A stretch of DNA of 39,877 nt, taken from assembly GCA_041288095.1 (NCBI GenBank), contig JBGGMJ010000103.1, positions 1 to 39,877 of the forward strand, in the 5' to 3' direction. A program made the position numbers and the translations under genes. The stretch comes from Myxococcota bacterium (GTDB lineage Bacteria; Myxococcota; XYA12-FULL-58-9; JALHOP01). This document shows, one piece after another, positions 9,102-23,013 of the stretch (position 1 is the first letter of the stretch; each line of letters starts with the position of its first letter). Under the pieces are notes generated by a model. That model worked only from the letters and a program-made list of their open reading frames with translations, was not told the origin of the DNA and searched no databases.

Positions 9102-9848
9102 ATGAAGAAAAACGACAGATCCCATGGCCGCCGCGATGAACGCGCGAGCGGCAAAGACGGCGGGCGTGCCGCCAGTCCGGCTGGCTTTGCGCATCGCGGG
9201 CAGCGCCCCGATCCGCTAGCGGCCAAGCGCGCCGAGCAGAAGGCCGCGATCGAGCACGAGCCGCAGCGCACCTGCATCATCACCAAGAAACAGCTCCCAC
9301 CAGCCGAGCTCTTGCGTCTCGCATGGGCTGAGGGCCAGCTCATCCCCGGTCCCAAGGGCGGGGGCCGCGGCGCCTATATCAAGGTCGCCCGCGAGGTCTT
9401 CGCGCAGCTCGACGCCAAGGTCCTGAGTCGCGCCTTCCGCGAACAGGTACGGGACTTCGACCGCGCGCAATTTCTGAACGATCTCCACAAGATGGCCGAG
9501 CGCCGAGTCCTCGAGGCGGTTGGCCTCGCGCGCCGCACCGGCATCTTGGTGACGGGCACTGACAACGTGCCCGCGAATGCACATGATGGCGTGCTGCTTC
9601 TTGCTGACGACTTGGCGGCACGGTCGAGCGGAAAGTTTGGCGCGCCCCCTTTCGTCAGCGGCGCAGCACTCGGGCAGGCCGCGGGCATGGGATATGTCGG
9701 CGCGGCGCTGATTCCAGGGAAAACGCATCACATCACGAACGAGGCTGCCTATTGGCTCGCAGTATGGTACGAGTCCGACCCCCGAGGGCCGGGCCGTTCG
9801 CGCGAACAGACAGGCACAGAGGGGCAGAACGAGGCATCGCATGAGTAA
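9102..9848 (+). CDS. ylxR: YlxR (DUF448) - L7Ae/YlxQ-like fusion RNA-binding protein
   Basis: PQRTCIITK...ELLRL and GRGAYI (YlxR), then VGLARRTG...LLADD...LGQAAG (L7Ae-like); lies between nusA and infB. Start uncertain (9048 or 9102). Confidence 0.8.
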   Translation: MKKNDRSHGRRDERASGKDGGRAASPAGFAHRGQRPDPLAAKRAEQKAAIEHEPQRTCIITKKQLPPAELLRLAWAEGQLIPGPKGGGRGAYIKVAREVFAQLDAKVLSRAFREQVRDFDRAQFLNDLHKMAERRVLEAVGLARRTGILVTGTDNVPANAHDGVLLLADDLAARSSGKFGAPPFVSGAALGQAAGMGYVGAALIPGKTHHITNEAAYWLAVWYESDPRGPGRSREQTGTEGQNEASHE

Positions 9849-12800
9849 GAAGCGGGTTCATGAGTTGGCAAAAGAGTTTGGGTTGGAGAACCGCGAGGCC
9901 GTTCTGTTGCTTCAGCAAGGTGGCGTCGACGTGAAGACCCACTCGAGCTCGGTCTACGAGGACGAAGCCCGCGCCGTCTTGATCAAGGCCAAGGGTAAGC
10001 CGGCTCCGGCCGCCGCCCCCGCCGCTCCGGCTCCTGGCGCCGCCGCCCCGGCCGCTGCTCCCGCTGGCGCCGCCGCTGGTCCGAAGCGCGTCGGTATGAT
10101 GATCGTCAAGAAGAAGGCCTCCGACGAGGTCGGCGCTCCGGCCGAAGCGCAGCACGCCGCGTCCGCGGAAGTGGACGAGCCGAGCGCACCCCAAGCCGCT
10201 CCCGCCGAGGAGCGTCAAGTCGAGCACGAGCTCGCTCCGCAAGTGGAAGCGCGCGAAGAAGCAGTCGACGACGGCGAGCCGCGTCCGGCCCGCGTTCCCG
10301 AACAACGCCCTGCGGCGCCTCCGCCGCAGAGTCAGTCGCGCGACGCCGCTCCGCGCCCGGCTTACAATCAGCCGTCGCGTACCGGCGGCAGCCGGCCCGC
10401 GGCTTATCACCGCGATCCCTCGCAGGACCGCGGTCGCCAGTCGGCCGATCAACAAGACGCGGGTGAGCCGACCGACGTGCCGCCTGGCGATGATGTGGCC
10501 GCTACAGCGGACCCGACCCAGACTGGCATGCCAACGGTGGCGCACCGCCCCGGCGCCGCACAAGTCGTGCGCATGATCGATCGCGACAAGCTCCTCGAAC
10601 GCATTCCCTCGCGCCGCTTGGGCGGTGGCCAAGGTGGCCCGCGCCAAGGCGGCTACGGTCCCCGTCCGGGTGGGCCCGGCGGTCCTTCGGGCCCCGGCGG
10701 CCAGCGTCCCGGTCCCGGTGCTCCCCGCTTCGGCGGAGTCACCGAGCTTCGCGTCGTCACCGATCCGTTCGGTCGCGGTCGTGAGATGGTCGACGTCAAC
10801 CGCCGTCCGCCGATGGGCGGTCCTGGCGGCGCTCCCGGCGCGCGTCCCGGCGGCTTTGGTCCCCCACGCGGTCCCGGCGGCGGTGGCCCCGGTCAGAACA
10901 AGGGTCGTCCCCCGAGCAAGCGCCAGATGGTCGAGATGCGCGAGCGCGCCATGCATCCGGCGCGTCTCAAGAAGAAGAAGACGACCAGCCGCACCGGTAA
11001 GCAGACCGTCGTGACCCAGCCGCGCGCCTCGAAGCGCGTGGTGAAGATGGGCAAGAACATCACCGTCGCGGAGCTCGCCTCCGAGTTGGGCGTCAAAGCC
11101 GCCGAGGTTATCGGCAAGCTGATGAAGCTCGGCGTGATGGTGACGCAGAATCAGTCGATCGACTTCGACACCGCGACGCTGATGGCGACCGAGTACGAGT
11201 ACACGGTCACCTCGGATGCCTTCGACGAGACGAAGATGCTCGACGTCGGCAAGCCGGAAGAGGCCGAGGAGACGGAAAACCTGAAGCCGCGTCCGCCGGT
11301 CGTGACCGTCATGGGCCACGTCGACCACGGTAAGACGTCGCTGCTCGACGCGATCCGCAAGGCAAAGGTCGCCGACGGCGAAGCGGGTGGCATCACCCAG
11401 CACATCGGCGCCTATCAGGTGGCGGTGCCGGGCAAGGGTCTGGTCACCTTCCTCGACACGCCGGGCCACGCGGCCTTTACCCAGATGCGCGCGCGCGGCG
11501 CTCAGATCACCGACCTCGTCGTGCTGGTCGTCGCGGCGGACGACGGCGTGATGCCGCAGACCGAAGAGGCCATCAAGCACGCGCAGGCCGCGGAAGTACC
11601 GATCATCGTGGCGGTCAACAAGATCGACAAGCCCGAGGCGCAGCCCGACCGCGTCATGCAGGAGCTCTCGAAGTTCAGCCTGCTCTCCGAGGCCTGGGGC
11701 GGTGAGACGCTCTTCGTGAACACCTCGGCGACCAAGGGCACCGGCATCCCCGAGCTGCTCGAGGCGATTCTGTTGCAGGCTGAAGTGCTCGAGCTCAAGG
11801 CGAATGCCGACCGTCCAGCCATCGGCTCGGTGGTCGAGGCTCAGCTCGACAAGGGTCGCGGCCCCGTTGCCACGCTCCTCATCGAGACCGGTACGCTGCG
11901 CACGGGCGACGCCATCGTCGTCGGCGAATGCTCAGGCCGCGTGCGCGCCATGCTCAACGACGAAGGCAAGTCGATCAAGGAAGCCGGCCCGTCGACGCCG
12001 GTCGAGATCATCGGTCTCGACGGCGTGCCTGATGCCGGCGACCAGCTCAACGTGGTCGAGAACGCCGATGCGGCGCGCGAGATCGCGGAGAATCGCAAGG
12101 CCGCGCGCAAGCAAGACGAGCAGGTCGTGGATCGCAAGATGTCGCTGGACGACATCATGAAGCGCATGGCCGGCCAGGAGTCGCTCGAGCTCAAGATCGT
12201 GCTCAAGGCCGACGTTCAAGGCTCCGCTGAAGCGGTCAAAGACGCCTTGAACAAGCTCACCACCCCCGAAGTGAAGGTCAACGTGATCTACTCGGGCGTT
12301 GGCGGCATCTCGGAGTCGGACATCACGCTGGCGGGCGCTTCGACGGGTATCGTCGTCGGCTTCGGAGTACGCCCCGACGCCAAGGCGCGCACCGTCGCCG
12401 AGCGCGAAGGTGTCGAGATTCGCACCTACGCCATCATCTACGAGATGCTCGACGACGTGCGGAAGGCCATGGAAGGCCTCCTTACGCCGGAGTCGCGCGA
12501 GAAGATCGTCGGCCGCTGCGAAGTGCGCGAGATCTTCCGTGTGTCGAAGATCGGCACCATCGCTGGTTGCCGCGTCGTCGATGGCAAGGCGCAACGCTCG
12601 GCGCGCATCCGCGTGCTGCGCGACAGCGTCCAGGTCTTCGATGGCAAGGTCTCGTCGCTGCGTAGCTTCAAGAACGACGTTCGCGAAGTGGACGCTGGAG
12701 CGGAGTGCGGTGTCAGCCTCGAGGGTTACCAGGACGTGAAGCCCGGTGATGTGCTCGAGTTCTACACCGTGGAAGAGGTGGCTCGCCGCCTCGACACCTC

Positions 12801-12858
12801 GCCGGCCGGTGGCGGTCGCCGCGGACCCGCGGCTACCGAAAATCGGCCGCAGGCCTAA
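9841..12858 (+). CDS. infB: Translation initiation factor IF-2
   Basis: [11 protein letters not shown]-terminus, [29 protein letters not shown], and C-terminal beta-barrel domains; long Ala/Pro/Gly-rich linker. Confidence 0.98.
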
Positions 12859-12871
12859 GGCTCGAATGGTT

Positions 12872-12915
12872 CCGCGCGAGCACGCCGGCTGTTAGCAGTC
12901 GACGTGGTCGCGCGG
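12872..12915. terminator. Long imperfect inverted repeat after infB, possible bidirectional terminator
   Basis: CCGCGCGAgCACGcCGGCTG-ttag-CAGTCGaCGTGgTCGCGCGG; 20-bp stem with two mismatches, between the infB stop and a convergent ORF stop (12934). No U-tract. Confidence 0.55.
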
Positions 12916-12933
12916 TCGCGTAGACGAGCTCGT

Positions 12934-13296
12934 TCAGATGCTCGGCCCGTGGCGGTGCTGCATATCGTTTCGCGCCGGCGGTTCGGCGCGGGGCGCACCT
13001 TCTCCCGGTCCGTTGCGATGGGTGCGCTCGTTGCTCCCCGTGCCGCCAGGGTTCTGACGACGCAGGCGCACACCGTCTTCGTCGCGCTCCATGCGCGGCA
13101 GGAAAGGCGTCGCGGGTCGTCCTTCCAAACGGTTCGGCTCGCGCTGCGAGCGTTGCTCCACCCGATCCTGAGCCTCGCCGCCGTTGTTGGACAGCGGTGG
13201 TTCCCCCGTTCCGAGCGCCGGAGGCTCGCCCGCCGGCGGATCAAGCTCGCGGACGTTCGGGCTGAGTGAGTTGGGTCGCTGAGTGATGCCTTCCAT
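12934..13296 (-). CDS. Small, probably disordered orphan protein (120 aa, P/G/R/E-rich)
   Basis: GAGGAG RBS before ATG 13296 (MEGITQRPNSLSP...); low complexity, no signal peptide. Confidence 0.55.
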   Translation of the reverse strand: MEGITQRPNSLSPNVRELDPPAGEPPALGTGEPPLSNNGGEAQDRVEQRSQREPNRLEGRPATPFLPRMERDEDGVRLRRQNPGGTGSNERTHRNGPGEGAPRAEPPARNDMQHRHGPSI

Positions 13297-13362
13297 TTCT
13301 GACTCCTCATGTCGAGCATGTGCTCGGCAAAACATTGATCGGGGCTTGCTTCGTCGTCCGCT

Positions 13363-13623
13363 TTAGAGGGCGCCGCGGATATTGACGCCGCCGCCGGCGC
13401 CGGGGGTTTGCAGTTGCGGGCGAGACGGCACGCGGTCCTGCGGAGGCTCGGGCCGCACCTGCATGGGCTCGACGCGGTCACTCGACCCTGGATTGCGCGG
13501 CTCGCGTTGGTCCGGGCGCGGTCCCCGCGGGCCGGTAGGCTCGGAGCTTTGCGGGCGCGTCTGCGTTGGCGCCGAATCGGTCGGATGGGTTGACGGGCGG
13601 GTCGTGATGGCTAGGCCGGACAT
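13363..13623 (-). CDS. Small, probably disordered orphan protein (86 aa, P/S/T/R-rich)
   Basis: AGGAG RBS 5 nt before the ATG (MSGLAITTRPST...); in tandem with 12934-13296. Confidence 0.55.
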   Translation of the reverse strand: MSGLAITTRPSTHPTDSAPTQTRPQSSEPTGPRGPRPDQREPRNPGSSDRVEPMQVRPEPPQDRVPSRPQLQTPGAGGGVNIRGAL

Positions 13624-13803
13624 GATGGCTCCTGGTGATTCGGCGCATTGCCGCGCCTGCCAGGAGTGGATTGCAGTAGGTGTGCCGCCCCCACGCGAGC
13701 CGGAGCGCCCGCTAGCGCGCCGCGGACGCGGCCAAGAGCCCCCAAAACCCGACGGTTTGGGGAGGAGGGGGGAGCCAACTTTTTCCCACCCTCTTGCGGG
13801 CGG

Positions 13804-15114
13804 CTACCCCGAGCGGCCGAGCAAGCCGTGTTTGCGCAGCACGCGCTTGAAGTGATTGCGGTCCATCCCCGAGTTGCGCGCCGCCTTGGCTAGATTCCCC
13901 TCGGCGGCCGCGAGCTGCGCCATGGCGTACTCGCGCTCGAACGCGTTGATGACGCGGCGCTTGCTCTCGACGAGCGCGGACTTGGTGTCGATCTCGAGCG
14001 TCGGTTTCGCCTCGCCGCCTTTCTGCACCCGTTCGGGCACGCGGCCGACCTCGAGGACGCTGATGATGGCGTTGCGGAGCTCGCGCACGTTGCCTGGCCA
14101 ATCGTAGCCACTGGTGAAGAGCTCGAGCGTATCGGCGGAGAGCGTCAGATCGCGGCCGAGCTTGGTGAGGACGTGTGCGACCAGCGCCGGAATGTCTTCG
14201 CGACGCTCGCGCAGCGGCGGAATGAACACGGAGACGACACCCAAGCGGAAGAGCAGGTCTTCACGGAAGCGCTTCCGCGCCACGAGCCCTTCGAGGTCTT
14301 GATGCGTCGCCGAGATGATGCGGACGTCGACGCGGTTTTCGAGGTTCGAGCCGACGGCGCGCAGCTTCTTCTCGTCGATGACGCGCAGGAGCTTCGGCTG
14401 CGACTCGAGCGGCAGCTCGCCGATTTCGTCGAGAAACACGGTGCCGGCGTCGGCGCGCACGAACACGCCGGCGCGATCACCGGCGGCGCTGGTAAATGCG
14501 CCGCGCACGTGGCCGAAGAGCTCGGACTCGATGAGCTGCTTCGCGGCCGCGCCGCAGTCGAAGACCTCGAAGGGCTTACCGGCGCGGCGTGAATGGTCGT
14601 GGATGGCCCGCGCCACCATGGTCTTGCCGACCCCGGTTTCGCCCAAAAGCAGGACCGGCGAATCCACCGGCTCGAGCTGCTCGAGGACGTGGAAAAGGTG
14701 GCGCATGACCGGGGTCGCCCCGACGACATCGCCATAGCGGTCACGCTTACTGGTGGTGATGCCGGCGAGCTCGGGCGTCGCGAGCTGTATCTTCGAACGA
14801 CCGAGCGACAAGGTGGCGCCGAGCTCGACCACGACCTCGCTGCAGCGAACACCCAGGTAGAAGGTGCCGTTGCGGCTCCCGAGGTCGGTGACCTTGATGC
14901 CGCTATCCCCAAGCGTGATGCGGCAATGGCGGCGCGAGATGGCGGTGTCGTTGAGCCGCAACATGCACCCCGGCTCGGTGCCGATGTCGCACTCTCCGCG
15001 TGCCAGCAACACTTCGCGGCCGCCGTCGACACCGTCGATGACGCGGATGCGGACGCTTTCGACACGTTGGCCGCGCGCGGGTAGGCCGTCGGTGCGCGGT
15101 CGCGTATCGCTCAC
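13804..15114 (-). CDS. FHA-domain sigma54-dependent enhancer-binding protein (FHA-AAA+-Fis HTH)
   Basis: FHA motifs IGT...ISRRHC...DLGSRNGT; GETGVGKT, ELFGHVRGAFTSA, FLDEIGEL, FREDLLFRL, WPGNVRELRN; C-terminal GNLAKAARNSG HTH. Confidence 0.93.
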   Translation of the reverse strand: MSDTRPRTDGLPARGQRVESVRIRVIDGVDGGREVLLARGECDIGTEPGCMLRLNDTAISRRHCRITLGDSGIKVTDLGSRNGTFYLGVRCSEVVVELGATLSLGRSKIQLATPELAGITTSKRDRYGDVVGATPVMRHLFHVLEQLEPVDSPVLLLGETGVGKTMVARAIHDHSRRAGKPFEVFDCGAAAKQLIESELFGHVRGAFTSAAGDRAGVFVRADAGTVFLDEIGELPLESQPKLLRVIDEKKLRAVGSNLENRVDVRIISATHQDLEGLVARKRFREDLLFRLGVVSVFIPPLRERREDIPALVAHVLTKLGRDLTLSADTLELFTSGYDWPGNVRELRNAIISVLEVGRVPERVQKGGEAKPTLEIDTKSALVESKRRVINAFEREYAMAQLAAAEGNLAKAARNSGMDRNHFKRVLRKHGLLGRSG

Positions 15115-15121
15115 GTATCGC

Positions 15122-15484
15122 TCACGGTGGGTCCAGCGAAACGCGTGCTCGACTGACCTCGTCGCGCCGCCACGGATGCGTGACCGCGAGGGCGCACACC
15201 CGCGTTTCAGCCGCGAAGCACTCGATCTCGTGCACCAGCGGCGAGGGTGTGCCCTCGGTCGGGGTCAACAAGAGCACGATGGGATAGGCGTGCGACGCCG
15301 ACACGTCGACCACCACCTCGAGCCGTGCCTCGGCTTCGCCGATACCGTGCGAGCGGACCGCGATGCTGTCGAGGCCGCCGGGCAGCGGCAGTCTCTCGGA
15401 GGTGAGCTCGAGTAGGATCTGCGGCTCTTCGCCGCCGCAAGCCGTGCAACCCAGGAGCAGGGCGATAGCGACTCGCGCTACCAT
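15122..15484 (-). CDS. Small lipoprotein, beta-rich
   Basis: MVARVAIALLLGCTACGG lipobox; start overlaps the end of the upstream gene. Confidence 0.65.
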   Translation of the reverse strand: MVARVAIALLLGCTACGGEEPQILLELTSERLPLPGGLDSIAVRSHGIGEAEARLEVVVDVSASHAYPIVLLLTPTEGTPSPLVHEIECFAAETRVCALAVTHPWRRDEVSRARVSLDPP

Positions 15485-16080
15485 GGCCCAGCGCTCCCGC
15501 CGGTGGCTGTCTCTACACGGAAAGGTCCGTAGTCGTGATCGGGCAGACCGTCGCCGCTCGACGCCACCACGACGACGACCACCACCGTCGCGACGACGGC
15601 CGCGGTTGCCGCCCAAAACCATGGACGTGACCAGAACCCCGGCCGTTGGTCGGTTTGTACCGTCGTAGTCGCCGCGGGCTGCGCGATGTCGACGCGATCT
15701 TCGACCGGCGGAGCCGCGAGACGTGGGTCGGGGACAGGTGGCGAATGGACCGCGCGCGCAAGCTCGAGTGGCCCCCGCAGCTTGGGCGATACGCTGGGGG
15801 CTAGCTCGTAGCTCGGGTTGCGCTCGAGGATGGCCAGATAGGCGTCGCGCGCCTCGAGCTCGCGGCCCTCGATGGTATGGACGAAAGCGCGAAGCTCGTA
15901 GGCGCGAATGGTCTCGGCCGGGCTCAGCGACTCGCCGAGCGCGCGCTCCACCAGCGGCAAGACCCGCGCGTAGTCGAGCTCGGCGTACGCCAAAGCGGCC
16001 TGGTCGAGTGTCGAGCTCGCGGCGCGCGCCCCACCTGGATGTAGGCCGAACGCCAACACGAGGGCTGCTACGGGTCTCAT
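15478..16080 (-). CDS. Exported TPR-like protein with C-terminal membrane anchor (myxobacterial type)
   Basis: Signal peptide ending ARA, TPR-like helices (AYAELDYARVL...EARDAYLAILERNP), Pro-rich linker, WSRPWFW followed by a hydrophobic helix; GAAGGAAG RBS before ATG 16080. Confidence 0.75.
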   Translation of the reverse strand: MRPVAALVLAFGLHPGGARAASSTLDQAALAYAELDYARVLPLVERALGESLSPAETIRAYELRAFVHTIEGRELEARDAYLAILERNPSYELAPSVSPKLRGPLELARAVHSPPVPDPRLAAPPVEDRVDIAQPAATTTVQTDQRPGFWSRPWFWAATAAVVATVVVVVVVASSGDGLPDHDYGPFRVETATGGSAGPW

Positions 16081-16114
16081 CAGGCGCTTCCTTCGAACAA
16101 TCCGTGGTTTATGC

Positions 16115-16130
16115 AGCAAGTCGAATGCCA
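16115..16130 (-). promoter_or_regulatory. Putative sigma54 -24/-12 promoter for the TPR-lipoprotein-EBP operon
   Basis: Minus strand TGGCATTCGACTTGCT (GG-N10-GC, near consensus), about 35 nt upstream of ATG 16080. Confidence 0.7.
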
Positions 16131-16183
16131 GACGGCCGAGAGCCCCGCCTCTGCTAGCATGTGTAAGTATAGCAGGAGTCCTG

Positions 16184-17716
16184 TTGACGTCTCTGGGGCG
16201 CTACACCGTCATTTCGCGCCTCGCCGTTGGCGGCATGGCCGAGGTGTTTGCCGCCACCATGGCGGGCGCCGAAGGCTTCGTGAAACCCGTCGTCGTCAAG
16301 CGGCTGCTGCCTCACCTCTGCGCCAAGCCGGAGATCGTGCGCCTCTTTCTCAATGAAGCCCGCCTGGCCGCCCAGTTCAGCCATCCGAACCTCGCGCAGG
16401 TCTATGAGCTCTTCGAAGCAGGCGGCAGCTATTGCATCGCCATGGAGCAGCTCGACGGCATCGACCTGTATGAGCTCCAGCGGCGCTTGCCGGCGCCACG
16501 TCTGCCCGCTCGAGCGGTCGGTGAGATCATCGCCGGGGTTGCCGCCGGCCTGCACGTCGCGCATTCGACCCGCGACGCCTCGGGCAAACCCGTGGGCATC
16601 ATCCATCGCGACGTCTCGCCGACGAACGTCGTGGTGACGCGCAGTGGTGTCGTGAAGCTCGTCGACTTCGGCGTCGCCAAGCTGCTCGATTCGCAGGCGC
16701 CTACCCAGCGTCGCGGCAAGCCGCGCTATATGTCTCCGGAGCAGATCAGCGGCACCACCCTCGACGGCCGCAGCGACCTCTTTGCGCTCGGCGCCGTCGC
16801 CTACGAGCTGTTGACCGCGTCGCCGTGTTTCGATGGCGAGACCGTCATGGACGTCGCCCACGCGATCAACAACGCGGCGTTCACCCGCATCGGCGCCATC
16901 GCCCCGGGCGTCGATGCCCAGCTCGCCGGCCTCGTCGAGCGCATGTTGGCTCCAGAGCGCGATGTTCGCCCCGCCAACGCCGACGACGTGCGTCGCGAAG
17001 CGCGTGAAATCGTCAGCCGCCTGGGCGGGCCGGGTTACGCGCTGCTCGACGACATCGACGTCGCCATCTTTGGCTTCGACGGCGAGATCACGCACAAGAC
17101 CGCGATGACTGCTCGCTTCCTGGTCACCGAGGCGACCGAGATCGCCGCGCCGCCGGTCACCGAAGATCTCATACCGCTCCAGTCGCGGGAACAGCCGGTC
17201 GCACGCTCGAACCCACGCTTCTCCCCGCGCCTCATGGCGATATCGGTCATTGGCGCGGTGGTTGCATTAGCGACGGGCATGATTTGGCAGCATGCTCCCC
17301 GCGATGTCAGGGCCGAGACGGCGCCACCGGCCGCCGTCGCTCGCGCCGAGGCCCCGTCTGTCGCTATAGCGGACATGCCGGACGCATCGCCGCCTCCTGT
17401 CACGACCCCGCTCGTGCCCGAGCCGCAACGACGGCCCGTCAAGGCTCGCGTGCGTCCGCTCCAGCGTACAGCGCCCCCGCGCGAGGAGCCGGCGCGCGGC
17501 AGTGGCTCCTTGATCGTCAATAGCGAGCCTTGGTCAGATGTCTATCTCGATGGTGTCCGCGTCGGCATCACGCCCCTGGCGCTGCACGACGTCACCGCCG
17601 GGCCACACGACCTGCAGCTACGCAACGACGCGGCGGATTTTCGCGTACGCCGCGACGTCCACGTTCGCGCCGGCGAGACCACCAAGGCGTTCGAGCGCGC
17701 GGCACCCGACAGATGA
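16184..17716 (+). CDS. Hanks-type Ser/Thr protein kinase with TM helix and C-terminal PEGA-like domain
   Basis: LAVGGMAEV, VVKRL, HRDVSPTN, DFGVAK, YMSPEQ, DLFALG; TM LMAISVIGAVVALATGMIW; PEGA-like LIVNSEPWSDVYLDG...GITPL; TTG start with AGGAG RBS. Confidence 0.93.
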   Translation: MTSLGRYTVISRLAVGGMAEVFAATMAGAEGFVKPVVVKRLLPHLCAKPEIVRLFLNEARLAAQFSHPNLAQVYELFEAGGSYCIAMEQLDGIDLYELQRRLPAPRLPARAVGEIIAGVAAGLHVAHSTRDASGKPVGIIHRDVSPTNVVVTRSGVVKLVDFGVAKLLDSQAPTQRRGKPRYMSPEQISGTTLDGRSDLFALGAVAYELLTASPCFDGETVMDVAHAINNAAFTRIGAIAPGVDAQLAGLVERMLAPERDVRPANADDVRREAREIVSRLGGPGYALLDDIDVAIFGFDGEITHKTAMTARFLVTEATEIAAPPVTEDLIPLQSREQPVARSNPRFSPRLMAISVIGAVVALATGMIWQHAPRDVRAETAPPAAVARAEAPSVAIADMPDASPPPVTTPLVPEPQRRPVKARVRPLQRTAPPREEPARGSGSLIVNSEPWSDVYLDGVRVGITPLALHDVTAGPHDLQLRNDAADFRVRRDVHVRAGETTKAFERAAPDR

Positions 17717-19461
17717 GGTGCGCGTTTGCTCTAGCGGTCACGCTCTGCGCCGGTTGCGATGCCATCGTCGACGTCGCGCCCCAAATCGACTATGTGCCGT
17801 TCGGAGACGGTGATGTCGACTTCGCCGCCGACCACGACGCAAGCGACGGGGACGGCGGTGATGGACAGGGCGACCAGGACCGCGATGATGGTCCGCGGAC
17901 GAGCTTCGTCGAAGCAGTGACGCAGGCCGCGCCCGTGGCCTGGTATCGGTTCGGCCGCGAGGATCTCGGTAGCACCGTCGCCCGCGACGCAACCACCGGA
18001 GGCCATCCCGGGAGCTACGTCGGCGAGTCGCGGCCCGGCGCGTTCGGCGCGTTGGCTCACGATGCCGACACAGCGGCGACGACCGCCAGCGAGGTCGACG
18101 GTCCGATCAACATTCCCAACGTGGGCGTCTTCACGGCGGCGGGCGCCACCTTCACCGTGAGCCTCTGGGTCAACCTGCACCACACCGTCTACTTCGACAC
18201 CGTAGCGGGCCTGTTCGCCGTCGGTAGCGACGAGGTCGGACCGAGCCCCGCCGCGGCCTTTCGCATGCTCGTGGGCGCCGATCAGAAGGTGCACGTCCAG
18301 CTCGCGGGCGTCGACGTCTTCGTCGGCGCTACGGCGCTCGCCCCCGGCCGTTGGACGTTGGTCTCGGTGACCCGCGCTGTCGGTGGCGCGCTCAAGCTCT
18401 ACGTGGATGAAGCGCTGGACGGTGAGAGTCTCATGTCCACGATGGCGGTCTCGGACGCGACGGCGTACCTCGGCGGGGGACGTTACCCGGGCTCGGCTCA
18501 CTTCGATGAGCTCATGATCTTCAACCGCGAGCTCGGGGCCGCCGAGATCTCGAGCTTCGTCCGAGCGGGCCGTGACGGTACGCAGGAACCAGCATCGTGC
18601 GGCCAGACGGAGAGCCCGGGCGACGTGTTCCTCGAGGCCCAGACCATCGCGAACCATCGCTTCACCAGCTCGGTCGTCATCCGCGCGTCCAACCTGCAGC
18701 TACGCAACGTCCTCATCGAAGCGACCGGCGACGGTGTGTTCATCGACGGCGCCGACGACGTGGTCCTCGAGGACGTCGCCATCGTCGTTACGACGAGCAG
18801 CGACCAGCCGATTGGCGTGCGCTTGCGGAATTCGCACCGAGCGCGCCTTACCCGCGTCCGCGTCATCGGCGCCCCGCGCGGAGTGGTCGTCGAGAATTCG
18901 GACGACCTCGTCGCCCGTTTCGTCGTGGTGCGCGAGGCCATGACCAGGGGGGCCACGTACCCAACCGTCCACGTGGACAGCGCGTCCAGCGGCGCCCAGC
19001 TCGAGGACTTCGAGGTGGTCGACTTCGGCGCCACCCATACGGCCCCGGTCAGCATGGCGATCGAGAATCCCGATATCTTCGCGACCCGCGGCTTGCTCGC
19101 GGGTAACAACGCACTCGACAGCATCGGCGTTCGTGTCGCGACCGCCGGCGCGTCCAGCGAAACCGCGCTCACCGACATCGACGTCACCGATCACAACTAC
19201 GCGTGTCTCCAGGTGGCGAGCTGCGGGGATTTACTGGTGGCCGGTCTGCGCTGTCGCGACACCCGCTGCAATGGCGAAGTGCCGTCGGACATTGGGTACG
19301 CTATAACGGTCGATGCCGGGGTTGCAGGCGTCATCTGGGAATCGATCTACGACGACCTCTGCGGTCCCGCGCTCGGCGGCACGGGTAGCATCAGCACCGA
19401 GCTCGACTCCGCGGGGTTTCAAGCGCGGCAGCGACTGAACGCCAGGTTCTGCTGGGAGTAG
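17713..19461 (+). CDS. Large lipoprotein: acidic linker + LamG/concanavalin-like domain + parallel beta-helix domain
   Basis: MRCAFALAVTLCAGC lipobox (ATGA overlap with the kinase); PVAWYRF...FTVSLWV...WTLVSVT...LKLYVD...FDELMIFNREL (LamG); then beta-helix-like repeats (GVFIDGADDVVLEDVAI, GVRLRNSHRARLTRVRV, GVVVENSDDLV). Confidence 0.75.
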   Translation: MRCAFALAVTLCAGCDAIVDVAPQIDYVPFGDGDVDFAADHDASDGDGGDGQGDQDRDDGPRTSFVEAVTQAAPVAWYRFGREDLGSTVARDATTGGHPGSYVGESRPGAFGALAHDADTAATTASEVDGPINIPNVGVFTAAGATFTVSLWVNLHHTVYFDTVAGLFAVGSDEVGPSPAAAFRMLVGADQKVHVQLAGVDVFVGATALAPGRWTLVSVTRAVGGALKLYVDEALDGESLMSTMAVSDATAYLGGGRYPGSAHFDELMIFNRELGAAEISSFVRAGRDGTQEPASCGQTESPGDVFLEAQTIANHRFTSSVVIRASNLQLRNVLIEATGDGVFIDGADDVVLEDVAIVVTTSSDQPIGVRLRNSHRARLTRVRVIGAPRGVVVENSDDLVARFVVVREAMTRGATYPTVHVDSASSGAQLEDFEVVDFGATHTAPVSMAIENPDIFATRGLLAGNNALDSIGVRVATAGASSETALTDIDVTDHNYACLQVASCGDLLVAGLRCRDTRCNGEVPSDIGYAITVDAGVAGVIWESIYDDLCGPALGGTGSISTELDSAGFQARQRLNARFCWE

Positions 19462-19462
19462 C

Positions 19463-20902
19463 TCAGCTCTCCGCTTTGGCGTCCAGCTCCGCGCGCTTGG
19501 CGCGTGCCTTGTCCTCACCCTCCGAGATCGCCTCGTCGAAGAGCTCTTCGGAGTTGGCAAGCCGGCGGCGGCGACGCGCGTCCTGATACTCGAAGGCGAG
19601 GAAGGCTTTCGCGTGCTCCCCGAGACGACGCGTCGTGCTCGGTTGCAGGTTCGCGAAGAGGCAATTACCGACGGCCTGCGCGAGGTACGGCTCTTCGAAG
19701 CGACGTGGGTCGTCGAGCGATTTCGGACCTAGCTCGGCGACGACACCAGCAACCCAACGATTGAGGGACTCATAGATCGCCTCGACGCTGCCCGCGCTCT
19801 TGCAGCGCTGCGCCAGGACGTCGGCGATCAAGGTCTTCAGGCTGTCGCGCATTTCGGGCGTTGCCAGAACCGCGTCGCGGATGGGGTAGACCTTCGAGCC
19901 CTTTTGGGTGTGCGTGCCGTTGAGGTAGCCGGCGTTGTCGAAGCGCAGCAGGTAGTGCTTCTGGTAGCCGACGAAACAAGGCTCGAGCTCGATGTACATG
20001 GCGTGCGTGAAGGTGTTCACGGGGACGAGCTGGTGTGTGAGCTCGCTGTTGCCGTCGGCGAGCGCGGCGTCGATCTTGCGCAGGATGACCTCGGCTTCGT
20101 TCTCGAGAGCAGCTCGCATGAGCGGACCGTCGGCCTTCTGCGTGATGACGTAGACCCGACGCTCGATGTGCAGCGCTTCGGTGGTGACGGCGATCTCGCG
20201 GGTCAGGGCCTCACACAAGTCGGCGTTATCTGCCCCGTGCGCCGCGACCATGCCGACGAGCGACCGGATGCGCATCTCGAGCGCCCACTCCGGGTTCCAG
20301 CCTTCGGCGCGGTAGATGCCTGGCACGTCGTCGGCGTCCTTCAAGTGCGCGCAATACAGGGAGAGTTGATCGGCCTTGTTGAGCATCCGCTCATTGCCGC
20401 CGCTGATCGAGAGAGCGACGCGATCGAGGTCCGCATCGGTCGCGCCCGCGATGATGGGCGCGATCTTCTCGCGCACCCAGGCGAGGCTCACGCGCTTGGG
20501 ATCGATCAGCGCTTCGCGCAGCTTCGGGGTGGTGAGGAAGGTTCGCGCGGTCTCCGGCTGACCCTTCTCGAGCGCGATGTGCACCGCTTGTAAGCCGGTC
20601 GTGGTTTGCACGTTGAGAGCCGCGCCCAGGCCCGCGTACACGGCCGCGAGCTGAGGCAAGCCGCGGCGCGCGGCATCGAGCACCGGTACGAGACCGGGAT
20701 TGCCGAGCGGGGTGGTGAAGATGCGTGCGCGTTCCTCCGCGCTCATCGGCGCGCCCAGCGCCTTGCACACTTCGACGACGTCCATCCCATGGAGGGCTTT
20801 CGGCACGTCGGGCTTGTCCGAGGAGGCCGCGTCGGTCTGGTGCGTGTCGACGAGTGACGCCGATGCGAGCTGAACACTCTGGCTGTCGCGCACCTGTGTC
20901 AT
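19463..20902 (-). CDS. Orphan protein with degenerate ankyrin repeats and a putative permuted papain-like His-Asn-Cys domain (effector-like)
   Basis: Ankyrin-like GLVPVLDAARRGLPQL...GAALNVQTTTGLQAVHIALEKGQPETARTFL; THAMYI, RFDNAG, AQAVGNC. Start placed at ATG 20902, downstream of the promoter motif. Confidence 0.6.
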   Translation of the reverse strand: MTQVRDSQSVQLASASLVDTHQTDAASSDKPDVPKALHGMDVVEVCKALGAPMSAEERARIFTTPLGNPGLVPVLDAARRGLPQLAAVYAGLGAALNVQTTTGLQAVHIALEKGQPETARTFLTTPKLREALIDPKRVSLAWVREKIAPIIAGATDADLDRVALSISGGNERMLNKADQLSLYCAHLKDADDVPGIYRAEGWNPEWALEMRIRSLVGMVAAHGADNADLCEALTREIAVTTEALHIERRVYVITQKADGPLMRAALENEAEVILRKIDAALADGNSELTHQLVPVNTFTHAMYIELEPCFVGYQKHYLLRFDNAGYLNGTHTQKGSKVYPIRDAVLATPEMRDSLKTLIADVLAQRCKSAGSVEAIYESLNRWVAGVVAELGPKSLDDPRRFEEPYLAQAVGNCLFANLQPSTTRRLGEHAKAFLAFEYQDARRRRRLANSEELFDEAISEGEDKARAKRAELDAKAES

Positions 20903-20936
20903 GCGATGCAACCTACCGTTGTCGCCGTCCTCATTC

Positions 20937-20964
20937 GTTATCGGCCGCGACAATCGCGAGTTGC
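20937..20964 (-). promoter_or_regulatory. Sigma28 (FliA)-like promoter upstream of the ankyrin/protease-like gene
   Basis: Minus strand GCAAC-N14-GCCGATAAC; the -10 is an exact GCCGATAA with canonical 15-nt spacing from the GCAA tetramer. Confidence 0.65.
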
Positions 20965-21006
20965 GACGGGGAGATCTGCCAGGCCGGCGAAAACGAGCCT
21001 GCGCAA

Positions 21007-21035
21007 GCAACATCCGACCCCGCCCAGCCGATACT
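21007..21035 (+). promoter_or_regulatory. Sigma28-like promoter upstream of the 79-aa orphan
   Basis: GCAAC-N15-GCCGATACT. Confidence 0.55.
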
Positions 21036-21084
21036 CAACTCTGATCCCGAAAATGGGGATATTGCCGCCGCCGAGGAGGGACCC

Positions 21085-21324
21085 ATGACGAGGGCCATAG
21101 CTGGTCTGCGCTTCGCGCCCGCCGAGCATATTCAGCCCGCCGAGGCATCGGCGAAGCAGCGTCTTCAGGCCGCGCAGACGGTCACCCAGATCAACCGCGA
21201 CGTATCGGTGCGTGCCACTGACCATTCGAACAAGGTCGCGCAGTGGACAGCCCGCAACGGCCGCGCCGCGATAGCAGCGCGCTCCACGCTCGCGGCCCTG
21301 ACGCAGCCGTCGAGCTACGTCTAG
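21085..21324 (+). CDS. Small orphan protein (79 aa, Ala-rich, predicted helical)
   Basis: Strong GAGGAGG RBS before ATG 21085 (MTRAIAGLRFAPAEHIQP...). Confidence 0.6.
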   Translation: MTRAIAGLRFAPAEHIQPAEASAKQRLQAAQTVTQINRDVSVRATDHSNKVAQWTARNGRAAIAARSTLAALTQPSSYV

Positions 21325-21351
21325 GCAGACGGCAGCGCCGTTCGGAATGAC

Positions 21352-21379
21352 GCAACCCGATCGCCCCGCGGTCGATACT
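21352..21379 (+). promoter_or_regulatory. Sigma28-like promoter upstream of the tandem-domain lipoprotein
   Basis: GCAAC-N14-GTCGATACT. Confidence 0.55.
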
Positions 21380-21411
21380 GAACGCGTCAACCGAATAGGT
21401 AGAGGTTTTGC

Positions 21412-22680
21412 GTGCGCATCCTTCCTGGACTCCCGAATCTCGACGCTCAGCAGGTGCGTAAAGTCGCGACCCGCGCCCTGACCGCTGGAGCGGTCGGCCT
21501 CGCCGCTGTCGGCCTCTCCGGCTGCAAGAACGAAGACCCGCTGCCCCAGAGCCGAGCCGGAACGGGTAGCTACTCGACCGATTCGATCCGGCTGCCCGTC
21601 GACCCCGGCACGCACCTCATCCTGCTGGAAGTCGACCGTCCGGTCGCGCCGACCATCGTGCAATACGCCGGCGGGCAGGGCCCGGGCATCGGCCGCGACG
21701 ACGCCCTCGTCGACGGCAATCGGATGAACCAGTCGAAAAAGTTCAACCTCACGGGCCGCATCGCGAACTACACCATCCTCGGTCGCGACGCCGTCTTGAG
21801 CCAGAACATCGCAGCCATCGGCGCGCACATCGCGGTGGAGGCGACCGATCGCAAGACGACCATGCTCGGGCCGGGGCACGTCGTCGCTCTCAAGTGCCAG
21901 GCGAACCTCGAGGTGACCTCGACGCTGCGCCAGCAAGAGGTCCTCACCACCGAGAAGCTCGAGGAGCGTAAGATCCTCGAGTTCGACTACTGCGAGATGG
22001 CGATCCCGAAGACCAACGCGACGGAAACTGACTTCAGGAACCTGATCGCCGCGGCACAGCAAACGCCAGTGGACCTCGCGAAGTACGAAAACAAAGGCAT
22101 GTTCGCGGGCTACGCGTTCCCACTGCCGAAGAGTCGCGAGGGTGCGCCAAGCTACGAGGGCTCATCGACGACCCAACGCTTGCCCGCCGACAACTCGACG
22201 CATCTGCTCTGGCTCGAGGTTGGCTCGGCGCCGGTGGTCGACGTCAAGTCGAACCGCTACTCCAACACGACGGGCACCACCTTCGGCATCAGCGGTGCCT
22301 ATACGTATGGCAGCGTCAGCACTTATTCGAGCGGCGGTGACAAGCCGAAGACGATGATCGTCGGCCGAGTCTTGGGCTACGAGACCGTCGGCGGTGTGCA
22401 GGAGCTGGTGGTGCGCCACACTTCGGTGGGAGAGCAGATCGTCATCGAAGCAACCGATCGCAAGACCTCGGCGCTCATGGCTGGCGATCGCATTCTGCTG
22501 CGCTGCAACGGCGATACCTCAGTACTTTCCGCGGTGCGCGACAACGAGACGCTGACGCCCGAGAAGCTGCAACAGCGCCGGATCGGCGAGCTCGACAACT
22601 GCGAGGTTGCAACACCGACGATCAGCGCCACCCAGGGCGACTTCGATGCCGCCGCCGGCCGCGCGCCCAACCGCTCGTAG
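21412..22680 (+). CDS. Lipoprotein with two tandem copies of an unknown ~150-aa beta domain
   Basis: AVGLAAVGLSGC lipobox after an unusually long N-region; internal duplication (next feature); GTG start with GAGG upstream. Confidence 0.75.
   Translation: MRILPGLPNLDAQQVRKVATRALTAGAVGLAAVGLSGCKNEDPLPQSRAGTGSYSTDSIRLPVDPGTHLILLEVDRPVAPTIVQYAGGQGPGIGRDDALVDGNRMNQSKKFNLTGRIANYTILGRDAVLSQNIAAIGAHIAVEATDRKTTMLGPGHVVALKCQANLEVTSTLRQQEVLTTEKLEERKILEFDYCEMAIPKTNATETDFRNLIAAAQQTPVDLAKYENKGMFAGYAFPLPKSREGAPSYEGSSTTQRLPADNSTHLLWLEVGSAPVVDVKSNRYSNTTGTTFGISGAYTYGSVSTYSSGGDKPKTMIVGRVLGYETVGGVQELVVRHTSVGEQIVIEATDRKTSALMAGDRILLRCNGDTSVLSAVRDNETLTPEKLQQRRIGELDNCEVATPTISATQGDFDAAAGRAPNRS
21589..22644 (+). repeat. 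Intragenic domain duplication (21589-22035 and 22177-22644)
   Basis: RLPVDPGTHLILLEV / RLPADNSTHLLWLEV; IAVEATDRKT / IVIEATDRKT; LKC / LRC; EVLTTEKL / ETLTPEKL; EFDYCEMA / ELDNCEVA; ATETDF / ATQGDF. Confidence 0.9.
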
Positions 22681-22725
22681 CGCGCACGCTTGCTTCTCGC
22701 GGTGACCATCGCTACGCCTAGCGCG

Positions 22726-23013
22726 ATGGTCGTCGGAGTCATGGAGCTCGCGCTCGCGCTGTACGACAACGAGTCGCTCAAGGACAAACGCTCGGTCGTG
22801 AAGCGGGTGATCGGGCGCGTGCGCCAGACGTTCAACGTCTCGGCGGCCGAAGTGGACGATCTCGACTTCAGTGATCGTGCGACCATCGGCATCGTCGCCG
22901 TCGGCAATGACCGGCGCTACATCATGGGCATGCTCGACAAGATCGAGGGGTTCGTCGATCGGATGGCGATCGCTGACATCCTCGACGCGACCAAGACGCT
23001 CGAGAACTACTGA
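22726..23013 (+). CDS. ylxP: DUF503 (YlxP-like) protein
   Basis: MVVGVMEL...SLKDKRSVVK...FNVSAAEVDDLD...IGIVAVGN matches the DUF503 signature. Confidence 0.9.
   Translation: MVVGVMELALALYDNESLKDKRSVVKRVIGRVRQTFNVSAAEVDDLDFSDRATIGIVAVGNDRRYIMGMLDKIEGFVDRMAIADILDATKTLENY

Follow-up and report, generated by a model that had tools for sequence, protein, structure and literature searches.

An ankyrin protein with a predicted AnkH/LegA15-type cysteine-protease-like domain behind a sigma-28-like promoter in a Myxococcota genome with a type III secretion cluster

What would a protein in which degenerate ankyrin repeats precede a His-Asn-Cys domain do in a Myxococcota bacterium, and in which cell would it act? 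The question is raised by a gene at 19463..20902 on the (-) strand of a 39,877-nucleotide (nt) stretch of DNA (contig JBGGMJ010000103.1, assembly GCA_041288095.1; the window hereafter), which encodes the 479-amino-acid (aa) protein P0001. The genome holding the window is designated G000, and relatives in the same phylum G001 and so on. Our reading, to which we give a probability of about one half, is that P0001 is an ankyrin protein with an AnkH/LegA15-type domain of MEROPS clan CE, expressed via a type III-linked sigma-28-like factor, exported by that type III system, and cleaving a bond in some protein of the cell that is contacted; the host itself is probably a predatory microbe, myxobacterium-like to judge by gene content. 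AnkH and LegA15 are precedents for the ankyrin fusion and for the fold, but our searches of the open-access literature turned up neither the family nor its host range, nor a tie between it and a type III-linked regulon.

The open reading frame (ORF) has the codon-position GC content of a real gene (0.69/0.45/0.84), its close orthologs are 78-99% identical to P0001, and the ratio of nonsynonymous to synonymous substitution rates (dN/dS) against the G001 ortholog is 0.13 overall, falling to 0.10 within residues 186-450 and rising to 0.24 within residues 1-35, a pattern that places the gene under purifying selection. ATG 20902 was preferred as the start, and a 516-aa version from the in-frame ATG 21013 was rejected, because orthologs begin with MTQ or MTH and a promoter-like motif sits between both starts. 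The motifs THAMYI, RFDNAG and AQAVGNC start at residues 299, 320 and 408, so that the numbering His300, Asn323, Gln409 and Cys414, given in an earlier note made from the letters of the window alone, is correct. An exhaustive search with residues 190-479 gave 17 representatives at E<=0.001, among which P0018, an unrelated repeat sequence, was dropped before alignment. Across an alignment of 19 rows, the most distant at ~20% identity, H300, Y303, N323 and G325 never vary, and Q409, C414, N418 and H331 hardly do. Seven genome hits extend this to a 26-row set (its rows being related, not independent), in which His300 (20003..20005; all feature coordinates of P0001 are on the (-) strand) and Asn323 (19934..19936) are kept in 26/26 rows, and Gln409 (19676..19678) and Cys414 (19661..19663) in 25/26, the single row lacking both being a fragment that ends before these positions. 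The conservation that the earlier note expected among homologs is therefore present. An additional, family-specific His331 (19910..19912) is conserved in 25/26 rows, and the remaining five Cys and His245/290/316/430 are not conserved.

The predicted structure places these residues in a known fold. Predicted local distance difference test (pLDDT) values are 85.7 for the whole-protein model and 84.8 for a model of residues 183-479, and the cysteine-protease-like domain (residues 186-450, 19553..20347) has clan CE topology. In VIA searches with the domain model, LegA15/AnkD (7ew8) ranks first with Z 16.7 (root-mean-square deviation [rmsd] 3.6, 236 aligned) and AnkH (6mca) second with Z 15.4 (rmsd 3.9, 231 aligned); ranks 3-8 are clan CE proteases throughout, namely XopD at Z 6.2 and OtDUB, SENP7, NopD, NEDP1 and RickCE at 5.1-5.3. 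Foldseek likewise returns LegA15 and AnkH as the top two, and they come first for the whole-protein model as well as for the domain model; the resemblance to LegA15/AnkD named in the earlier note is borne out. In the model His300 begins a strand (301-311), Asn323 closes the next strand (314-322), and Cys414 begins a long helix (414-449); AnkH H243, D258 and C324 are reported in the same strand and helix placement (PMC6712400). A triad of His300 as general base (AnkH H243, LegA15 H268), Asn323 as third residue (AnkH D258, LegA15 N290) and Cys414 as nucleophile (AnkH C324, LegA15 C361) is thus predicted in an AnkH/LegA15-type domain, with Gln409 (LegA15 Q356; invariant in 41/41 AnkH-like rows) as the predicted oxyanion-hole residue.

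Clan CE is described as a circularly permuted papain fold with His-Asp/Asn/Glu-Cys order (PMC7391069, PMC6712400), and P0001 shows this order and, in its predicted model, this core; the earlier description as a circularly permuted papain-like domain is therefore right, and it names a known fold. With the wider clan (XopD, Ulp1/SENP, NEDP1, OtDUB, RickCE, the YopJ family) P0001 shares the His-Asp/Asn-Gln-Cys order and the permuted core, but its Z scores there are only 4-6, it has no aromatic gatekeeper and its helical domain is larger. Giant-virus DUF3638 proteins (Hyperionvirus, Hokovirus, Fadolivirus, Harvfovirus) match the catalytic domain in fold (E 2.6e-4 to 1e-2; template modelling [TM] score by query 0.38-0.54), but are mostly >1000 aa. 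Sequence searches of the PDB with the catalytic domain or its profile gave no significant match. In the ESM Atlas, matches at 0.90-0.96 were to unlabelled clusters and the leads to Toxin_15 and YopJ stayed below 0.9, and a structure search there was uninformative. Membership of the ShET2/EspL type was rejected, those families being described with a Cys-His-Asp order (PMC11475232).

How close, then, is the relation to AnkH? A pattern derived from the published AnkH motif yielded 80 loci, 68 with AnkH-like ORFs, of which 41 were aligned; the profile of these 41 sequences matches 6mca at E 3e-110 and LegA15 at 8e-8. Alignment of the P0001 family with this set by hhalign gives a probability of 83.8 (E 7.9e-6), and the EGW/EGF, P..HA and Q..GNC..AN motifs are collinear in it, the EGW of P0001 (residues 200-202, 20297..20305) aligning with the conserved EGF of the AnkH family. 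Since the AnkH set had been selected by its Cys motif, hhalign was repeated without the Cys region and scored 27.3, compared with 11.1-21.8 in 40 block shuffles. Reported conserved patterns of AnkH are rGHa, D/NRg and GNCSWANV (PMC6712400), and their counterparts in P0001, THA, DNAG and GNCLFANL, occur in the same order. Single-profile scores are negligible: the AnkH profile gives P0001 3.2 bits and the best family member 8.3 bits, and in reverse the P0001-family profile gives the best AnkH-like sequence 20.3 bits. P0001 thus has no significant AnkH profile match of the kind by which a strict ortholog would be recognised, and the family is best described, at the level of sequence and fold, as a sister family in the AnkH superfamily, not as AnkH orthologs.

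Likeness and difference run side by side in both relatives. AnkH/LegA3 (6mca), with its family in Legionellales and Coxiellales, has ankyrins with a cysteine-protease-like domain, the collinear EGF/EGW, P..HA, [DN]xG and Q..GNC..AN motifs and an Ala after the catalytic His, but identity is ~14%, P0001 has Asn in place of the usual Asp, two to three degenerate repeats where AnkH has four, and the extra conserved His331. LegA15/AnkD (lpg2456; PDB 7ew8, 7kj6, 7xql) has N-terminal ankyrins followed by the same fold, the His-Asn-Cys order, the Q-x4-C spacing and a length of 471 vs 479 aa, but identity is ~11% and its K367 and R291 are not kept in P0001. LegA15 is moreover a Dot/Icm substrate, whereas the P0001 gene is accompanied by a type III system in its genome. 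The known range of AnkH is reported as Dot/Icm-bearing intracellular bacteria (PMC6712400); DotI/IcmL was not found in G000, although the control was unmatched in every genome and G000 is only 90% complete. We found no open-access paper linking AnkH homologs to myxobacteria.

The chemistry that we propose from the model is that Cys414 would attack a carbonyl, that His300, oriented by Asn323, would act as base, that Gln409 would stabilise the oxyanion, and that the acyl-enzyme would then be hydrolysed, which would break a peptide or an isopeptide bond within some protein of the contacted cell. The characterised relatives suggest other outcomes. LegA15 is reported as a GTPase acting via C361 and K367, with H268A barely affecting it (PMC9757750), and a comparable atypical GTPase in which Cys414 activates water could be imagined for P0001, given that LegA15 is the top structural match, that the Q-x4-C spacing and the Asn third residue are common to both, and that the position of R291 is Arg in 9/26 rows. 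In P0001, however, that position is Ala324, Q420 stands at the position of K367, where 0/26 rows have Lys or Arg, and His300 is invariant although H268A is nearly silent in LegA15, so that we regard a GTPase as highly improbable; the invariance of His300 therefore favours triad chemistry.

The residue after the catalytic His bears on a second alternative, that of a canonical deubiquitinase (DUB) or ubiquitin-like (SUMO/NEDD8) isopeptidase directed against eukaryotic cells. DUBs and ubiquitin-like proteases (Ulps) that cleave after Gly-Gly are reported typically to bear an aromatic gatekeeper, His-[F/Y/W] (PMC7391069). In P0001 this residue is Ala, the 26 family rows show A20/S4/T1/Q1, and it is aromatic in 0/26 of them and in 0/41 AnkH-like rows. 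XopD, OtDUB, SENP7, NopD, NEDP1 and RickCE do come directly after AnkH in the fold search, and the fold is common to the DUF3638 proteins, two of which are labelled 'ubiquitinyl hydrolase 1'. The Z scores to these enzymes are nevertheless only 5-6, and the viral labels are database names, DUF3638 activity being absent from the paper titles and abstracts found. Deubiquitinase and GTPase activities are not favoured because the gatekeeper and the GTPase lysine are each absent from all 26 rows; a canonical DUB is very unlikely, and, as far as the alignment tells, P0001 probably does not act on a ubiquitin-like Gly-Gly end.

This leaves P0001 either hydrolysing some other peptide or amide bond or carrying out acyl transfer or deamidation, options that sequence cannot tell apart (PMC7391069; PMC10983931). 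An enzyme under the same promoter and export that resolves the acyl-enzyme by transfer or deamidation, as a YopJ-like acetyltransferase, a Gln/Asn deamidase or a transglutaminase, has several points in its favour: (i) clan CE acetyltransferases are reported to employ the same triad (PMC7391069), and AvrA (Z 4.6) and HopZ1a (Z 3.9) are among the fold matches; (ii) the AnkH triad is reported as required in cells, yet AnkH shows no protease activity in vitro (PMC6712400; review PMC11475232); and (iii) the family conserves the extra His331. On the other hand, the YopJ-family Z scores lie below those of XopD and the SENP-like proteases, and the ESM Atlas link to Acetyltransf_14 is at 0.76 a lead at best. 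We therefore consider transfer or deamidation rather unlikely and retain hydrolysis as the preferred chemistry.

Outside the catalytic domain, P0001 has ankyrin repeats and a disordered N-terminus. Pfam and NCBIfam scans gave no hit in P0001. Residues 66-125 weakly match PDB ankyrin chains (best E 1.2e-7, summed over repeats), Pfam Ank_2 is present at E<=0.01 in 10/16 scanned hits, and the model has helix pairs at 42-62, 73-91 and 106-124; we therefore count two to three degenerate ankyrin repeats in residues 36-125 (20528..20797), close to the two that the earlier note had seen. Several relatives carry a second ankyrin block C-terminal to the catalytic domain. The ankyrins would bind the substrate or an activator. 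Residues 1-35 (20798..20902) are polar, disordered (pLDDT <50 for residues 1-28) and the fastest-changing part of the protein (dN 0.42 vs 0.12 in the catalytic domain). By inspection no hydrophobic signal stretch is visible there, which agrees with the absence of a Sec signal claimed earlier; the low complexity claimed with it does not hold strictly, the segment being polar and disordered rather than low-complexity. A disordered polar N-terminus that lacks a Sec signal is what a type III effector would show, as a heuristic only, and this segment would be the candidate export signal.

A promoter and the type III system of the genome give independent support to the claim of a secreted effector. 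Upstream of the gene, at 20964-20938 (-), lies GCAA-N15-GCCGATAA, made up of a -35-like GCAA box (20961..20964), a 15-nt spacer and a -10-like box GCCGATAA (20938..20945) 35 nt before the ATG, which we take to be the sigma-28 -10 consensus. Both boxes are kept in orthologs while the spacer varies; they stand before the gene in 8/10 strong-hit genomes (G000, G001, G002, G003, G117, G114, G095, G079), across different gene neighbourhoods and at ~22% protein identity. Genome-wide, GCAA-N15/16-NCCGATAN occurs at 125 sites in G000, whereas any one of six wrong spacing pairs gives 6-11; 15/125 sites are located in gene cores vs 45/68 controls, and 117/125 have a coding-like ORF within 200 nt. The arrangement, a bipartite motif with a GCCGATAA-like -10 box and a fixed spacer upstream of genes, is that of a sigma-28 (FliA/WhiG)-type promoter. 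An extracytoplasmic function (ECF) sigma may read it instead, although in its -10 box it agrees with sigma-28.

Most sites stand before orphan or hydrolase genes, and the proteins behind them usually have polar N-termini that lack a signal. With a crude gene caller, downstream N-termini are richer in S/T/P/Q/N (0.305 vs 0.242, p 5e-14) and hydrophobic leaders are rare (9/105 vs 732/2318). Among 57 other regulon members of >=240 aa, 37 have no Pfam hit, and the 20 with hits comprise seven proteases, five other hydrolases, one serpin and some metabolic or envelope proteins; three subtilases without signals, a serpin and many orphan proteins stand behind the same promoter. The serpin-domain protein (L050, G000:C134:41731-43230) has a Ser/Gly-rich, signal-less N-terminus.

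Which factor reads the promoter can be approached through the type III genes. G000 holds a single FlhA/SctV-type gene, scored as SctV, and a cluster with SctR, SctS and SctQ, all four exceeding the NCBIfam cut-offs; the cluster also contains genes of SctT/N/L/J-like type, one for a SycD-like chaperone and one for a FliA-like sigma; G000 thus has a non-flagellar type III secretion system (T3SS), and SctV is above cut-off in each of the other 9 genomes with strong hits. Within the G000 cluster there are related promoter sites, and the exact motif GCAA-N15/16-CCGATA, present in 68/101 phylum genomes, occurs 150-220 nt beyond the end of the orthologous sigma gene in G047, G054, G071, G075 and G095. 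At least 8 exact copies are found in 14/101 genomes, all 14 of which carry an ortholog of the cluster sigma, and none of the 60 genomes without it exceeds six copies. The recognition helix of the cluster sigma is divergent, which fits the changed -35 box. Co-occurrence and linkage favour this factor as the reader of the promoter, and it would switch on the P0001 gene. Separately, the type III operon on G000:C92 includes large genes (779, 673 and 634 aa, one with DUF4781; L030:11343-16788, L031:1701-3602) that are candidate substrates.

In G000 the flagellar apparatus offers no other route. G001 has a full flagellar gene set, and both blocks are cleanly missing in G000 (G000:C79 vs L209-L211); the loss is real because the sequences that flank each block adjoin one another on a single, N-free contig, and flagellar export of P0001 in G000 was rejected on this ground. 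To judge from these sequences, flagella were lost recently within one genus; flagellin was not found in G000 and is present in five relatives. The regions upstream of fliC and flgM in G001 carry instead T(A/C)AA-N15-G(G/T)CGATGA, as read by eye. Of other systems, the type VI component VipB was not found in G000 (90% complete), and G000 also carries a Tad CpaB gene. The type III system of Myxococcus, which is needleless, is reported to lyse prey jointly with a Tad-like Kil pilus, with effectors proposed but unnamed (PMC12075869). G000 resembles M. xanthus (needleless T3SS*, mxan_2434-2464, and Kil [Tad]) in that one genome holds both a non-flagellar export apparatus and a Tad gene, the two systems having been compared by gene types. 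Our searches of the open-access literature found no link between that system and a sigma-28 regulon, nor any paper that ties a FliA regulon to myxobacteria.

If the sigma-28-like factor were instead a general life-stage regulator, P0001 could be an enzyme of the cell's own cytoplasm. A precedent is the attack phase of Bdellovibrio bacteriovorus, where the FliA-type motif TTAAG-N16-CCGATA is reported before 92/140 attack-phase promoters, far beyond flagella (PMC3627812); the two regulons share the CCGATA -10 box before a large non-flagellar gene set, but the -35 box in G000 is GCAA and not TTAAG, and its sigma gene lies in a type III cluster while flagellar genes are absent from the genome. That the G000 regulon includes some proteins of housekeeping-like or Sec-exported kind, and that no chaperone gene adjoins the P0001 gene, would suit such a role. 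Five observations speak against it: the disordered and variable N-terminus, the signal-less subtilases, serpin and orphan proteins under the same promoter, the related sites within the type III cluster, the host-cell action of AnkH and LegA15, its characterised structural relatives, and the patchiness of the gene, found in 13/401 phylum genomes (10 of them strong hits), unlike housekeeping genes. We hold the cytoplasmic role to be unlikely and return to export by the type III system.

Export and proteolysis in a contacted cell have, in turn, to be weighed against the following points: (i) the Foldseek TM scores of LegA15 and AnkH are only 0.45-0.50, and the hhalign probability falls to 14 once the Cys region is removed; (ii) the fold alone is no proof of proteolysis, because AnkH is reported to have shown no protease activity in vitro and LegA15 to be a GTPase; (iii) the promoter is missing in two of the ten strong-hit genomes, G020 and G010; (iv) 31/60 genomes without the sigma ortholog still show 1-6 motif copies, and kin genomes are not independent; (v) G000 has a second FliA-like sigma, whose close orthologs, it should be said, occur in only six of the motif-rich genomes, with none in G095 or G079, and whose recognition helix resembles flagellar FliA; (vi) the regulon is not purely effector-like, 9/105 members having hydrophobic leaders and homoserine dehydrogenase, HlyD and amine oxidase being included, and its N-terminal comparison relied on the crude gene caller; (vii) no ubiquitin-system domain was found among the 57 regulon proteins, so that nothing there points to a eukaryotic target; and (viii) the Myxococcus system is reported to lack needle and translocon genes (PMC12075869). 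As to the cell in which P0001 would act, we slightly favour a eukaryotic microbe, with a bacterial prey cell not far behind.

The distribution and neighbourhood of the gene complete the picture. Of the genomes with hits, G146, G037 and G181 are weak hits outside the ten strong ones; G146 and G037, small genomes of 1.7-2.0 Mb, have a related H...NSG.G...Q..G.C domain (loci L017 and L018, respectively), in G037 within a 3623-aa open frame. We found no P0001 paralog in G000 and no confirmed relative in a search of genome contigs for related loci; a profile search with the full length was flooded with ankyrin proteins, and a search for longer proteins returned only P0020. Each of the genus's four genomes has the gene in antisense orientation, flanked by infB and a DUF503 gene, with extra genes inserted on both sides in G000. 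The rimP-nusA-ylxR-infB-DUF503 operon is broken after infB in this genus, and rbfA was not seen adjoining in the window (9841-23013); genes for an FHA-sigma54 activator, a Ser/Thr kinase-PEGA protein and a LamG protein lie between infB and the P0001 gene in G000 only (13804-19461). The G003 ortholog in the same slot (L024:890-2341) is 36% identical, vs 80-94% for its neighbours, which may reflect rapid divergence or in-place replacement, and the G002 ortholog (L023:10468-11888) is broken near codon 82 by a 10-nt gap, which leaves ORFs of 90 and 388 aa, through decay or assembly error. Divergent from the P0001 gene is a 79-aa ORF at 21085-21324 (+), 70% identical in G001 and with no Pfam hit, which has its own promoter of the same type; the sites at 20964-20938 (-) and 21007-21034 (+) are the window's examples of the regulon. 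A 422-aa protein at 21412-22680 (+), with a lipobox-like LSGC and a ~170-aa internal repeat, is absent from the syntenic loci of three relatives.

To conclude, AnkH is a core effector of Legionella, and the residues that matter stand out in a distant sister family from free-living bacteria that is under purifying selection: the triad and the Gln are kept, the GTPase lysine and the DUB gatekeeper are not; P0001 is thereby a protein of a non-pathogen on which the AnkH reaction could be sought. The conserved promoter at its gene and at ~120 other sites provides a testable list of candidate effectors. A broader proposal, which we offer tentatively and regard as doubtful on present evidence, is that in uncultured Myxococcota-like predators a sigma-28-like factor of the type III cluster would switch on >100 exported proteins through GCAA-N15/16-CCGATA, P0001 being one of them and acting in eukaryotic microbes. 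If this is true, AnkH/LegA15 chemistry would be older than the Dot/Icm pathogens or would have escaped from them, and the effectors still missing for the myxobacterial type III system could be sought throughout the genome with the promoter as key.

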